In this document: piece by piece, positions 34,678-42,746 of the stretch
How the letters are laid out: the number at the start of each line of letters is the position of its first letter
How positions within the stretch are numbered: position 1 is the first letter of the stretch
Source of the DNA: Anaerotruncus sp.
GTDB lineage: Bacteria > Bacillota > Clostridia > Oscillospirales > Acutalibacteraceae
Length of the DNA stretch: 64,000 nt
NCBI GenBank assembly: GCA_022009795.1
Contig: CP091724.1
Coordinates: 1,925,494-1,989,493, forward strand
Direction: 5' to 3'
The notes under the pieces: generated by a model
Seen by the model: only the letters and a program-made list of their open reading frames with translations
The model's database searches: none
Told to the model about the DNA's origin: nothing
Translations under genes and position numbers: made by a program

Positions 34678-37600
34678 ATGGCTACAAGATTTGAACTCAT
34701 TTCTGCTCTTTATGATGATGTTTCAAAGGATGTTATCCGTTCGCCGAGTAATTGGCAGGAATTTTTGAAAAGTTCTTGCAATAACTACGGATTGCCTTTT
34801 AGTGAGCAACTGCTTGTATATGCTCAAAAGCCTGACGCTGTTGCAGTTTTACCTATGGCAAGCTGGAATAGGAGGTTTGGCAGATGGGTAAATAAAGGTG
34901 CTAAAGGCATTGCACTTTTTGATGTGTCAAATAAAAACTACCCAAGGCTTAAATATGTGTTTGATGTCAGCGATACCCACGAGGGCGAGCAGGCAAAAGA
35001 AGTCCCTATTTGGCATATGAAAAACGAATATGCCGATAATGTTATTAAGACACTTGAAAACGTTTTCGGCGCAGTTGATGATAAATCAGATTTAGGCAGT
35101 GCCGTCATATCTGCTTGTAAAAACGGTGTAAACGACAATTTGTCCGATTATCTTTTTGAACTTTGCAGTGCAAAGCAAGACAGTTTTCTTGAAGATTTCT
35201 CCGACGATATTATTTCATCAAAGTTTCGTAAATTGGTTTCAAACAGCGTTTCGTATACAGTTCTTTCAAGGCTTGGTGTTGACGCCGATTTAATGCTTGA
35301 TACGGAAGATTTTGAGGATGTTGTTAATTTCAATACACCGAACACTTTTAATGCCCTCGGTGAAGCAACAAACAATATTTCAAAAACAGCACTCCTTGAA
35401 ATATCAAAAAACATATTTGCACTTGAAAAAGAAAATCGCATATTTGAAAAAACTTCAACAAGTCCCTACAATAAAGATGAAAACAAAAACGAAAGGAGCA
35501 ATTCAAATGAAGATAACATACACACAAGTCGGAAAAACAGCTTTATCCGAACCTGATTATGCCGACAAAGAAGGAGCAAATGGGATATTACGCACAGAAA
35601 AGACAGGAATATCTCAAAAATCACAAGAAAGCGATATTCACAACTTTATTGACAACCTGCAAGCTGACGGAACACCTGATGTCGATTCAGGAACAGGCAC
35701 AGCAGATGGAAGAACAAATCATAACTCAGATGGCAAAAGCACAGGGAGTGACAGAGAAACTCAAGCAAACGAATATGATGACTTGGGTGGGAATGATGAA
35801 CAATATCAGGAACTCGGCGAGGGAAACAGTCTTGAACGAACTGATTTACACGATGTAACCGATGAACTGCCGCCTTTTGTTGACGAACAGGCTATCAGGT
35901 ATTTGTTAAGCAATCCCGATGATGATTTGGTGCAAAGAAAACCTGCAATCATCAAGGCTTACCAAACCACCAAAAAGGATAATGAACTCATAAACTATAC
36001 AAAAACGCTGTATCCAAGACGGTTTGACGAGTACGATAAATTCAATAAACACTTTGGCTTTACTTTAGCCGATAACGGACTTCTTATGTATGAGGGTAAC
36101 TACAAAACCCGAACAAAGGAGTCCGTTTTTTCGTGGGATATTGTTGTTGGTATCATTAAAGAACTTATCAATGACGGCAAGTATCTTGATACAGAAAAGG
36201 AAGGAAAAACACAGCTTGACTTATTTAGTTTTTCTTATGATAACGAGCCTGTATATGATGAAATACCTCAAACATCACTTTTTACCGATTTTGGCATATC
36301 GCAACAGATTATTGATGAAGCACTTTGCTGTGGCTTTAATGATAAAAACAGCAGAGTACAAATTGCTATGCACTTCAGACGGGACAGAGGTATTGAGTAT
36401 AACGCAAGAATGCTCAAATTCCTTTACGGCACTAACGGTGCAGGCTTTGTCTTTAACGGTGAAAAGGTTTCCTTTTGGTATGATGAAAACGGTATAAGTA
36501 TTGCTAAAGGTACATCGGCTAAAACAAGTACGGCAACACATCTCACTTGGGAGCAAGCTGCTGTTCGTATTCGTGAACTTCTTGATGTAGGCAGATATAT
36601 GCCACAGTATGAACTTGACAAGGTCGATGACTATGAACTCAATAAAGTTGCAGACAGGCTCACAGAGTTTATCCGAGATTTGAGTGACGATTATCCCAAT
36701 AAAGATAATTGTCTGCAATCAATACAAAAAGAAATTGACGGCGTTTTAGGCTATCCCGATATGGTTGAAAAAATTACCGATATGCTCAAAGATGATGAAA
36801 AGCGTGCTCAAATTTTCAAAGAGTACGGCAAACTGATGGATGACTACAACGCCGGTATGAAAATCATTCGCTTTAATTATGCAGCTCAATATTCTATACC
36901 ATATATTGCAGAGATTATTGAGGGTATGAAACGAGAGCCTATTCCGTTTAAAGCTGAATCGGGTTATCTGCCTGACAGAGAAATGTTCATCTCACAAGAT
37001 GAGATAGACAAGATTATCATAAACGGCAAAAACAATCACGCTTACAGGCTTGAAACCTACACCTACTTTGTTAATCACCCTGATAAAGCAGACAGAATTA
37101 AATATGTAGGCAAGGATAATCAAAGCGGATATTTAGGCGGTAATGACAGCGTTAATAAAACAACAAAAGGTATCGAATTCAGCCACGGCTCGGTTATGGA
37201 GCCTTATGCAAAAGTTCTTGTTAAATGGAGCGATGTCGCAAAAAGAATCGATACTCTTATCAAGCAAAACAAGTTTGTAACGCAAGAGGATATTGACGCT
37301 ATACCCGATATATACAAAAACGAAATATCAAGAGATTTGGAATCGTTCTTTGAAGGTTTATCCGAGAATGACGCTAAGCCTTATCCGAACGATATTGAGC
37401 CATACAAGATTTCAAGAGTTATCAAGGCTCAATTTGATAACCCACAGGCACTTGATGACATTGAAAATATGATGTCAAATGCTTTGGCTCTTATGGATAA
37501 AGAGGACAGAATGTATCAGTACCGTAAGCAAATCTATGATGACTTTATCGCTTACAAAAACGGCACATTCAAACTTTATGATTATCCAAACCTTGCGCCA

Positions 37601-40600
37601 AAAGTAAAACAACTGAGTAAGTTTACTAAACCGGCAGAAAAAGAAAAGGTTGATGCAAAAATTGAGCCCGTTGTATCGGAAGCTGATGATGGCTTAGACT
37701 TAATCGGTGAAGAAATAGATATTGACGGCAGACACTTTGTTGTTGATTCCGTCAGCAATGGTTATGTATCTATGGCTGACCAAACTTTTGCCGATGGAAC
37801 AGGCTTTCCTATTTTTCGCAGAGAAGCCGTTGAATTTGTAAGGCAATATTTACCGACAGAAAAAGAACAGATAATTCCTGTTCAGAATACAAAACAGCAT
37901 ACTGAACATAGTCAGTGGGATATTCATCCCGAAATTCCTGTTGAACAAAGGCACGACTTTGATTTTGCCGCACATCCTGTTGAGATTGTGGGCAAAAAGG
38001 AACGCTTTCGCAGGAATATGGAGGCTATCAAGGTTTTTAAAAGAATGTGAAGCCGATAACCGTTTTTGCAACACCTAATGAACAAATCGTTCTTTCAAAA
38101 TATGTCGGTTGGGGCGGTATTCCCGAAGCGTTTGACGAAAACAATTCGTCTTGGGCAAATGAATACAAGGAACTCGTTGAAGTGCTGTCACCTGATGAGT
38201 ACGCACACGCTCGTGAAAGCACATTAACTGCTTTCTATACTCCTCAAGAAGTAGTTAAGGCTTGTTATGATATTGCCGAAAATCTTGGCTTCAAGCAAGG
38301 CAATATTCTTGAACCGTCCTGCGGTATCGGTAATTTTATCGGTATGAAGCCAAAGAGCATGGCTGACAGTAAGGTGTACGGTATTGAACTTGACTCTGTT
38401 TCGGCAGCTATTGCACAACAACTTTATCAAACTGCAAGCATTGTTAATAACGGCTATGAAAAGGTGGATTTACCCGATAACTTCTATGACCTTGTAACTA
38501 CCAATGTACCTTTTGGCGATTTTAAAGTATCGGATAAGAAATACGATAAGCATAACCCGCTTATTCACGATTACTTCTTTATGAAGTCACTTGATAAAGT
38601 CAGAACAGGCGGCATAATGATACTCATTACCTCTAAAGGTACTATGGATAAAGAAAACAGTAATATCAGGAGATATATTGCTCAAAGAGCAGACCTTCTC
38701 GGTGCAATAAGACTTCCTAACGATACTTTTAAGGGCAATGCAGGCACAGAGGTAGTATCGGATATTCTTGTTCTTCAAAAGCGTGACAGAATGCTTGATA
38801 TTGAGCCTGATTGGGTACAGCTTGATAATACCGAAGACGGTATCAGAATGAATAAATACTTTGTTGATAATCCCGATATGGTACTCGGTAATATGGAAAC
38901 GGTTTCAGGTCGTTTCGGTCCGGAATCAACCTGTATTTCGTATGATGATAGAAGTCTTGAAGAACTGCTTGACGTGGCTGTTAAGAATATTCAAGGACAA
39001 ATTACAGAGGTGCAAATCGGTGATGAATTTGAAGAAGATTTATCTATTTCTGCATTACCTGATGTTCGTAACTTTTCATATACTGTTGTAGACGGAAAGA
39101 TATACTTTAGAGAAAATTCAAGAATGACGCCTGTTGATGTATCCGCTACTGCCGAAAACAGAATCAAAGGTATGATTTCAATTAGAGACAGCACCCGAAA
39201 ACTTATTGAACTTCAAACCGATGATTATCCTGAAGAAGACATACTTGCAGAACAGAAAAATCTTAATGAACTGTATGATAAGTTTACGGTAAAGTATGGC
39301 TTAATAAACAGCAGAGCAAACAAGTCGGCATTCGGCGAGGACGCTTCGTATCACCTTATATCTGCTCTTGAAATACTCGGAGAAAACGGCACTCTTGAAC
39401 GCAAAGCAGATATGTTTACCAAGAGGACTATTAAACCTCATATTCCCGTAACGGAGGTTGATACTCCTTCGGAAGCACTTGCCGTATCTATGGGTGAACG
39501 GGCAAAGATAGATATTGAATATATGAGCAATCTTTGCCATAAGTCCGAAAAAGAGATTTACGATGAACTTCAAGGCGTAATATTCCTTAACCCTGAATAC
39601 AATGCCGATAATCCTACTGCTCAAAAATACTTGATGGCAGACGAATATCTTTCGGGTAATGTAAGAGCAAAACTGCGTTTTGCAAAAGCCGTTGCAAAGA
39701 CACAGCCTGAATATCAAATCAATGTTGAATCACTTCAAAAGGTACAGCCTAAAGACTTAACGGCAAGTGAGATTGATGTCAGGTTAGGTGCTACTTGGCT
39801 TCCTGTTGACGTTGTTGAGAATTTTATATATGAATTACTTGAAACTACGTACTATTGCAAGTTAAATATCAAGGTGAATTTTTCACCGTTCAGCAGTGAG
39901 TGGAATATTACAAACAAAAGTGGCGACAGAGGAAATGTTAAAGCAAACAGCACTTACGGTACAAGCCGTATCAATGCTTATCAAATTATTGAGCAAACAT
40001 TGAATCTTAAAGATGTCCGTATTTTTGATTATGTTATTGATGACGACGGTAAGAAAAAGCCTGTGCTTAATAAGAAAGAAACAGCTATTGCTATAGAAAA
40101 GCAAGACGCAATTAAACAGGCATTTAAGGACTGGATATGGAATGACCCTGAAAGACGTAACCGTTTATGTGAAATGTATAATGAGAAGTTTAATTCAATC
40201 AGACCTCGTGAATATGACGGCAGTCACCTTATCTTTCCCAATATGAATCCCGAAATCACTTTAAGACCTCATCAATTAAACGCTGTTGCTCACAGTCTTT
40301 ACGGTGGTAACACGCTTCTTGCTCACGCTGTCGGTGCCGGTAAGACTTATGAGATGATTGCAATAGCCGAAGAATCAATTCGTCTCGGCTTATCAAGTAA
40401 ATGTATGATTGTTGTACCTAATCATCTTACCGAACAATGGGGTGCAGATATTCTCACTCTCTATCCAAATGCAAAGGTACTTGTGGCAACCAAAAAGGAT
40501 TTTTGAAAAGAAAAAAACAGAAAGCGTTTTTTTATCCCGAATTGCTACCGGTGATTATGATTTGATAGTTATAGGTCACTCACAGTTTGAAAAAGTGCCT

Positions 40601-42746
40601 ATGAGTATTGAAAGGCAGCAAACAATTCTTCAAAGGCAACTTGACGAAATTATCGAGGGTATATCCGAACTCAAATACCAAAGAGGTCAAAACTTCACCG
40701 TAAAGCAGCTTGAAAAGGCTAAAAAGAGCATTCAAGCAAAACTCGATAAATTAAACGACCAAAGCAGAAAAGACGATATTGTGACCTTTGAAGAGCTTGG
40801 TGTAGACAGATTGTTTATTGACGAAGCACATTATTTTAAAAACCTTTTCCTGTATACAAAAATGCGTAATGTCGGCGGTATAGCACAGACAGAAGCACAA
40901 AAGTCAAGTGACCTGTTTATGAAAACACAGTATCTTGATGAAATTACGGGCGGTAGAGGTGTAGTATTTGCGACAGGTACACCAATCAGTAACAGTATGG
41001 TTGAGCTGTATACAATGCAAAGATATTTGCAGTACAACACCCTTCGCAGGCACGATTTACAGCACTTTGACGCTTGGGCGTCAACATTCGGCGAAACGAT
41101 AACCGCCATTGAATTAACTCCTGAAGGTTCAGGTTACAGACCGAAAACCCGTTTTGCTAAGTTCTATAACCTGCCTGAACTGATGTCAATGTTCAAAGAG
41201 GTGGCTGACATTCAAACTGCCGATATGCTTAAACTTCCCGTACCTGAAGCTGAATACAAAAATATTGCCGTTAAGCCGTCGGACATTCAAAGTGAAATGG
41301 TTAAATCACTTTCAGAGCGTGCAGAAAAGGTGCGTAACGGTGGTGTTGACAGCAGTCAAGACAATATGCTCCTTATCACAAATGACGGCAGAAAGCTTGC
41401 TTTAGACCAAAGAATGATTGACCCATTGTTACCAGACTTTGAGGGCAGTAAGGTCAATGCCCTTGTTGACAATGTATATCGTATTTGGGACGAAACAACA
41501 CCGAACAAGTCGGCACAACTTATCTTTTGTGACTTATCAACACCTAAATCATCCAATGATTTTTCTGTGTATAACGATATTAGAGATAAGTTGATTAAAA
41601 AAGGTATTCCACACGATGAGGTGCAATTCATTCACGATGCGAATACAGAAACGAAGAAAGCCGAGTTGTTCAAAAAGGTACGCTCAGGTGAAGTCAGAGT
41701 TCTTATGGGTTCAACTCAAAAGATGGGTGCCGGCACCAATGTGCAAAACAAATTGATTGCCATGCACGATTTAGATTGCCCTTGGAGACCTGCCGATTTG
41801 GAGCAACGAGCCGGAAGAATTATTCGTCAAGGTAACGAAAACTCTAAAGTGGAGATTTACCGTTATGTAACAGAGCAAACCTTTGACGCATATCTTTATC
41901 AGCTTGTTGAGGGTAAGCAAAAGTTTGCTTCGCAGATTATGTCGAGTAAATCTCCCGTTAGGTCTGCCGAAGACATTGACGAAACAGCGTTATCCTATGC
42001 CGAAATCAAAATGCTTGCAACTGGCAATCCCTACATCAAAGAGAAAATGGATCTTGACATTCAGGTGCAAAAAAACTTCGTATGTTAAAAATCAAACTTT
42101 TTTTATCGGAAAGATATTCTCTTGAAGACAAGGTGCTTAAAGATTTTTCCTCGTGACATTGCAAGATACACATCGAGGATTGACGGCTTTATTAAGGACA
42201 TAGCTACTGCAAAACATAACCCAAAGAATATTGCCGATACCTTTGTCGGTATGATTGTAAACGGTGTAAGGTATGACGAAAAGGCAGACGCAGGTCAAGC
42301 CATAATTGATGTATGCAAGACATTATCTGACAGCAATACTTATCCTCTCGGTGAGTACAGAGGTTTCAAAATGGAAGTTCATTATGAACCGTTCAGTCAT
42401 CAACACAGAGTTGAAATCAAAGGTGCAATTTCTCATCAAGGTGTGCTTGGTTCTGATCCATTAGGCAACATTACCCGTATTGATAATGTAATTGACGGTT
42501 TAGAAAAGGTTCTTGAAAATGAAAAAGCAGAGCTCTCAAACAGTCAAAAACAGCTTGAAATTGCAAAAGAACAACTTCAAAAACCGTTTTCAAGAGAAGA
42601 TGAACTTAAACAAAAAGAAGCACGGTTAAGCGAACTTAACGCACTTCTTAATGTTGATAAAAAAAGAAAATGAGATTGTTAATGATGACAACGAAATAGT
42701 TAATGATTCTCCTCAGCGAAGTGAAGTTGACAGAGAATCACGGTGA
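34678..42746 (+). CDS. Giant ArdC-like/N6-adenine methylase/SNF2 helicase protein (DarB-like), frameshifted
   Basis: [12 protein letters not shown] (ArdC-N-like), [44 protein letters not shown] across five ORFs. Confidence 0.9.
35507..35858 (+). CDS. tnpV: TnpV-family protein nested in an alternative frame of the helicase gene
   Basis: GAAAGGAG SD; ITYTQVG.QLYPNL...[33 protein letters not shown] after removing one A at 35533-35537. Confidence 0.8.

Follow-up and report, generated by a model that had tools for sequence, protein, structure and literature searches.

Can a single stretch of a bacterial mobile element encode two proteins on the same strand, and if so, which reading frame is the gene and which is the overprint? 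The question is raised by a locus in a 64,000-nt stretch of an Anaerotruncus sp. genome (hereafter the window). A sequence-only reading had proposed that a gene for a TnpV-like protein is overprinted there inside a giant methylase-helicase gene, and that one base too many in a run of A residues has broken both.

Positions 24259-59887 of the window form a conjugative element beside smpB, with genes for a tyrosine recombinase, ParA/ParB, a SpaA-repeat adhesin, the giant helicase, Fic, a relaxase, a CD1115-type VirD4, a CD1110-type VirB4 and a class B sortase. No resistance family scored over its cut-off among the 52 ORFs of the window or among 27 of the 35 listed downstream ORFs.

Layout of the locus and the surplus base

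The giant gene (34678..42673, plus strand) is present in the assembly as five ORFs. Pfam matches to N6_Mtase, ResIII, SNF2 and Helicase_C were found in its downstream pieces, and the PF02384 (E=3.7e-10) and PF00271 (E=6.9e-8) matches describe an N6-adenine methylase fused to a SNF2-type helicase. The gene is ∼29% identical to P1-like darB, and its methylase module starts at ∼38010. The N-terminal domain (34678..35454) is putatively ArdC-like, to judge by its homologues: those on Listeria plasmids carry the name “ArdC-like ssDNA-binding domain,” and ArdcN (PF08401) matched 4 of the 79 homologues that were aligned (best E=4.6e-5), the window member not being one of them. The domain had no match in the PDB.

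Downstream of this domain the sequence contains a Shine-Dalgarno (SD) motif, GAAAGGAG, at 35491-35498, followed after an 8-nt spacer by an ATG at 35507, a run of five A residues at 35533-35537 and a TAA at 35856-35858, all on the plus strand. The helicase N-terminus beginning at 34678 is in frame 1 and stops at 35554; frame 2 is common to the 35297-38050 ORF and the ATG at 35507, and the ORF at 35559-35858 is in frame 0. With this arrangement one base less unites both pairs of ORFs, and the frame arithmetic agrees with the proposal that removing one A repairs two frames at once. Without the surplus base, tnpV (35507..35858) has 116 codons in the +1 frame relative to the giant gene, which reads the same bases (35506..35857) as an open, cysteine-free, acidic/polar linker. 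The assignment of the product to TnpV, made earlier from the letters alone, was borne out by the ORF at 35559-35855, which matches Pfam TnpV (PF14198) with E=9.8e-33 and 112.9 bits (curated cut-off 27 bits).

Relatives do not have the extra base. Contigs from 4/4 public runs, belonging to four studies, are one base shorter in the A run, as the sequence-only reading had expected, and represent close relatives rather than the sample's own raw reads; one of them, 2,469 nt long, covers the whole 2-kb stretch with 42 substitutions and a single gap. A related locus with 95% amino acid identity, L003, has one 2,145-aa ORF with an intact 116-aa TnpV inside (131 bits against PF14198, profile positions 1-111), and tnpV is likewise intact, without the surplus base, in the 95%-identical relative L065. 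The window and L065 differ by 13 indels over ∼11 kb; every one of them adds bases to the window, and most lie next to homopolymers. The public contigs and these indels point to an assembly error, and we conclude from the relatives that this is what the extra A is. The assembly is a single 2.04-Mb contig that is 72% complete and has split core genes.

The giant gene is one ORF in L003 and other relatives. Its proposed split at the A run stands as an assembly break, but it is not the only one: further breaks were located at ∼38038-38067, 40500-40527 and 42088-42122. Surplus homopolymer bases also split glmS (a core gene) and the acyl-CoA ligase, VirB4, VirD4 and adhesin genes in the window. Other frameshift-based findings from this Anaerotruncus sp. 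genome call for caution.

Conservation of the nesting and selection in the two frames

To follow the arrangement in other genomes we used the N-terminal domain alone as query in 401 order-level and 401 phylum-level genomes, of which 69 and 28 matched, own genome included, and examined the 88 non-self loci with strong matches. With the TnpV profile applied to the alternate frames of these homologous helicases, TnpV was found in the +1 frame, and the host frame was stop-free across tnpV, in 82/88 loci, which are kin and not independent samples. In three of the 82 (L039, L044, L099) the host frame stops 9-65 codons past tnpV. The other six comprise one locus cut by a contig end (L037), one in which tnpV is intact and the host frame is broken (L071), two short ORFs that have the ArdC-like domain only and lack TnpV (L094, L100) and two with a divergent +1 ORF that has an SD and an ATG (L105, L106). 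These divergent ORFs (1000-1429 in L105) are 139-144 codons long, lie at the tnpV position and are too divergent for the profiles. Outside the 88, eight weak partial ArdC-like matches were without TnpV. Nesting was also seen in 6/6 plasmid loci (Virgibacillus, Enterococcus, Anaerococcus, Listeria innocua, Aerococcus and B. thuringiensis), which were retrieved with a query including the linker. The 30 best stand-alone tnpV copies all have stops, 3-16 each, in the corresponding host frame.

Start signals are conserved along with the frames. Among 89 nested homologues the start codon is ATG in 87, and the SD match is at least 6 nt in 66 and at least 4 nt in all 89; since starts were picked by best SD, these SD counts are upper bounds. 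The case for a candidate internal promoter is less clear. A promoter-like site, TTGAAA-17-TACAAT (35444..35472, plus strand, unproven), lies 34 nt 5′ of the tnpV ATG, but one site was found in the stretch examined against 1.5 expected by chance. A similar site is present in 44/89 homologues, against 0-8 in eight control windows and 35/89 in a ninth; as this ninth window scores nearly as high, the internal promoter is possible and the evidence for it suggestive. The ninth window lies ∼200 nt 5′ of the tnpV upstream window, inside the ArdC-like domain, and may reflect a codon artefact or another internal promoter.

Selection differs between the two frames. Purifying selection acts on the TnpV frame, for which omega over 22 disjoint pairs was 0.23; the value for the host frame was 1.47, and the ArdC-like domain gave 0.16 in frame and 1.40-1.74 out of frame; pS was 0.26 in tnpV vs. 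0.44-0.47 in the flanks. The host frame of the nested loci nevertheless has no stop, no cysteine and 2% aromatic residues in 11,412 codons, in agreement with the acidic/polar linker proposed at the outset. The same frame of stand-alone tnpV has 410 stops and 183 cysteines in 6,434 codons, and the third frame of the nested loci has 1,273 stops and 486 cysteines over these 11,412 codons. In third positions of tnpV codons, a T that would make a host-frame stop occurs in 0/3,165 nested vs. 232/1,147 stand-alone cases and a T that would make a cysteine in 0/592 vs. 183/415, whereas a T that makes serine is unchanged (0.32 vs. 0.34). Tyrosine and tryptophan are depleted in the host frame and serine is not. 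G+C content is somewhat higher in nested loci (0.48 vs. 0.41), and after synonymous recoding with the nested genes' own codon usage only ∼4% of trials per sequence kept an open host frame. This filter against stops and cysteines, despite an omega of 1.47, suggests that the host frame, though not conserved in sequence, reads as a translated, disordered linker.

With open frames, SD and start codon conserved and selection specific to each frame, comparative sequence evidence leaves us in hardly any doubt that the proposed same-strand dual coding of tnpV and the giant gene is real. The direction in which it had been proposed, with tnpV as the overprint on the helicase, should probably be reversed: the constrained frame is that of tnpV, probably the older gene, and the degenerate frame is that of the host, which would be an overprinted linker.

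Phage genes, free copies and a proposed role of TnpV

The tie between tnpV and the methylase-helicase was approached from the other side with 80 IMG/VR loci chosen by their methylase domain (two overlap loci of the other set). A +1 nested TnpV match was present in 58/80, including 43/43 loci with a full ArdC-like domain and 14 without that domain; 13 of these 14 are large genes, mostly phage-type giants, with the small ORF shortly before the methylase. Wider profiles, which are partly circular as they were built in part from these loci, raised the number to 68/80, all in +1, and 7/80 loci with long N-termini had no TnpV match even with them. The PF14198 cut-off was passed by 6 of 19 TnpV-like ORFs from the methylase-chosen loci, and a comparison of the TnpV-like and TnpV profiles gave a probability of 96.9% (E=1.8e-10). 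A tie of TnpV to the ArdC domain was considered and given up, because methylase-chosen loci carry tnpV without that domain.

Eight cultured phages, Itty13, Stean, PEp14, Pavtok, VvAW1, SopranoGao, Atu_ph08 and PBC5, are those found with such an ORF; in all 8 it has 102-109 codons, an ATG and an SD-like site and lies in or overlaps a DarB-like gene. In four phage pairs pN/pS was 0.20/0.52 for the small frame and 0.31/0.18 for that of the host. An Arthrobacter plasmid has the same nested layout, and no TnpV match was obtained for the P1-like, Nitrobacter, Labrenzia and Anabaena genes, whose N-termini are short. From these comparisons we conclude that nesting is typical in the giant gene family and extends to phage DarB-like genes. 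A Stutzerimonas plasmid (L274, 4621-4926) encodes a 101-aa hypothetical protein in +1 inside its methylase-helicase ORF, at the TnpV position and without a profile match.

A PF14198 match, nested or not, is present in 171/300 family genomes. Trees of TnpV have only 118 columns to draw on: in one of 154 rows the stand-alone label needs 7 changes, of which strong branches force 4, and nested copies occupy the deepest rows. When phage rows, which do not fall on one side of a branch, serve as outgroup, 7 changes are needed and 2 are forced. We infer that the family began as a nested gene, from which free copies escaped on several occasions; the root of these trees is not secure. The stand-alone transposon tnpV accordingly looks like the derived state in these trees. 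The second tnpV of the own genome stands alone behind a serine recombinase (L001 1459-1842; G000:C1:2008529-2008861), has one stop in the −1 frame and a nested-like codon bias and groups with the nested L093; it is probably a recent escape. In L003 (16430-18887) a serine-recombinase element that carries its own tnpV truncates the giant gene; it resembles the S. suis IMEs that carry tnpV and insert into and disrupt snf2 genes, as described in the accessible text of PMC9815147. The impression that a stand-alone tnpV usually follows a serine recombinase did not hold, with a recombinase upstream of 2/51 copies (two queries). No methylase was found within 1.5 kb of a stand-alone tnpV (0/55), so these copies act in trans or do something else.

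The AlphaFold model of TnpV (pLDDT 87) has an N-terminal beta-hairpin and five helices. No column of the alignment is invariant, and those that come close are mostly structural or hydrophobic. With a median net charge of −2, TnpV is not clearly a DNA binder, nor is it a DNA mimic of the strongly acidic kind. There was no Foldseek match at E<=0.001 in PDB or BFVD, no sequence match in the PDB and no usable match in the Atlas. The top fold match, 2apl_A (Z 6.6 (VIA), rmsd 2.1 over 61 residues), is below the tool's meaningful level; 2apl we take to be DUF1896 (PF08989), a family without a match in the own genome and not among the Pfam hits shown for TnpV-like proteins. The Xis fold is a DNA-binding winged helix, and no Xis is among the listed fold matches of TnpV.

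As the small gene follows the methylase-SNF2 dyad whatever the N-terminus, we favor a partner role. In the mechanism we propose, tnpV would be translated from its own SD and ATG into a folded, mostly helical protein of 116 aa, while ribosomes in the −1 frame would read the same bases as a hydrophilic, cysteine-free linker that connects the ArdC-like header to the remainder of the DarB-like methylase-helicase. TnpV would be a non-catalytic partner of the methylase-SNF2 module. In the donor or infected cell it would bind the giant protein and hold it inactive, ready for loading into the conjugation machinery or the phage head, and the giant protein would then act on the incoming DNA in the recipient. 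At first tnpV would have been located just 5′ of the methylase-helicase gene; delivery domains would have been fused by reading through its −1 frame, and this fusion would have locked both genes together. The account as a whole, with its dual coding, its partner TnpV and its origin in a fusion of delivery domains, strikes us as slightly on the probable side; for the partner role by itself the balance is even. The stand-alone copies with no methylase nearby, and the giant genes that have no tnpV, speak against such a role. A more far-reaching version, which we put forward tentatively and with less belief than doubt, is that TnpV is an ancient, cross-phylum inhibitor or chaperone of injected DarB-like methylase-helicases, with its own promoter as befits an antidote, embedded by fusion and captured repeatedly by small mobilisable elements to control or exploit the anti-restriction machine of a helper.

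Alternatively, the dual coding could be real while TnpV works independently, as an anti-defence or establishment factor with DNA or a host component as its target, and owes its nesting only to the benefit of being co-expressed and co-inherited with an anti-restriction gene. The abundance of stand-alone tnpV, its location away from any methylase, its possible own promoter and the disruption of snf2 genes by tnpV-carrying S. suis IMEs (PMC9815147, as far as accessible) would all suit such a factor. Frame and position relative to the methylase-helicase are, however, fixed across ICEs, plasmids and phages of several phyla, a pattern that a direct functional tie fits better, and the net charge is a further point against it; we consider an independent factor rather unlikely. 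An Xis-like role, as excisionase or recombination directionality factor, has been postulated for the TnpV of Tn4451 from homology to lambda Xis (PMC3158075, accessible part), and a serine recombinase gene does precede tnpV in L001 and the second copy in L003. We think this very improbable, given the predicted hairpin and five-helix model, which is unlike a winged helix, the rarity of recombinases 5′ of stand-alone copies (2/51) and the presence of homologues inside virion-protein genes of phages.

Programmed frameshifting could also join the frames and yield a fusion of the N-terminal domain with TnpV, besides or instead of free TnpV. In PBC5 the upstream part of the giant gene does continue in frame into the TnpV-like ORF, but the host frame is continuous in the other 7 phages, the PBC5-like Atu_ph08 among them, so the PBC5 split looks like a one-base error. 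Moreover, SD and ATG are conserved, and a stop in the tnpV frame lies 0-94 codons 5′ of the ATG, often fewer than 15, which leaves little probability for such a fusion. Annotation of the PBC5 record (L280, 2764-9306 and 10938 onward) divides the DarB-like gene into two, of which the first terminates in the TnpV-like frame. This in-frame continuation accounts for the C-terminal match to phrog_938, and the error has probably shaped PHROG 938; a fusion of TnpV to a virion protein, suggested by that match, was dropped because it rests on the split record. Least probable of all is that one frame only is used, through a true frameshift of the strain or an open second frame as by-product of codon bias, as the resemblance of the host omega to the off-frame controls and the dependence of the A-run evidence on relatives rather than raw reads are outweighed by the public contigs and L065 indels, by the ∼4% of recoding trials and by the stops and cysteines of the third frame.

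Comparison with known systems

The sequence-only reading had expected annotators to miss this gene, which is correct for some records: several list the giant gene and omit tnpV, and none of the 8 cultured phage records annotates the TnpV-like ORF as a separate gene. The opposite fault is also seen, as RefSeq annotates TnpV in Monoglobus and Arthrobacter and gives the helicase a late start there, and a Cohnella record with an incomplete gene table lists TnpV with the helicase absent. For phage Itty13 (L278, 3990-16325) the annotation shows three hypothetical genes on one strand where the other strand holds a 4,112-codon DarB-like ORF. A systematic annotation fault is exposed in this way, either TnpV with a truncated helicase or a giant gene without TnpV, and deletions of or insertions into snf2/darB-like genes may unknowingly strike two genes.

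A literature search, for which most subscription papers and supplements were out of reach, found no published report of tnpV nesting. The giant gene resembles the DarB-type polyvalent proteins in having a putatively ArdC-like N-terminus, an N6-methylase and a SNF2 helicase on a conjugative element (PMC5512222, accessible text). For such proteins it has been proposed that ArdC-N stands at the head of polypeptides that travel with the DNA, and that protection of the incoming DNA falls to the methylase-SNF2 dyad (Iyer et al., 2017; PMC5512222), and only by analogy with this family description would the giant protein be transferred with DNA and act against restriction. The words “TnpV,” “overlap” and “linker” do not occur in the main text of that paper.

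The nested tnpV belongs to the same family (PF14198) as TnpV of Tn4451/Tn4453, well above the Pfam cut-off. The available text of PMC3158075 treats the Tn4451 gene as a stand-alone transposon gene, whereas the tnpV of the window lies wholly inside the giant gene; the deeper TnpV diversity in our tree is among nested copies. A gene that is very common in the gut mobilome and long unexplained thereby gains a testable context.

A small companion of a DarB protein is known. Ulx has a role in DarB packaging. In phage P1, DarB works with this Dar-system protein, which is encoded with darB (PMC12810830, in part accessible). The Ulx gene (phrog_1629) lies downstream of darB without overlap, unlike the nested tnpV, and TnpV-like profiles gave an hhalign probability of 0.2% against Ulx, with no phrog_1629 match for 17 TnpV-like proteins. 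We favor a partner role for TnpV that is analogous, not homologous, to that of Ulx.

Rz1 in Rz is one same-strand nested gene pair. Nested bacterial genes are known, and according to the accessible text of PMC11230408 few have been characterized; comS in srfA and GndA in gnd are, like tnpV, frameshifted ORFs with their own SD and start inside a larger gene. Unlike these, tnpV would encode a folded product of ∼115 aa (GndA has 36 aa) that is conserved in phages and in several phyla; its frame is the constrained one and the host's the degenerate one, and tnpV also exists as a free gene. The nested tnpV family would make a large and phylogenetically deep addition to the few same-strand nested genes of bacteria, and its polarity would be unusual in that the small gene is constrained and the overprint is the giant one.
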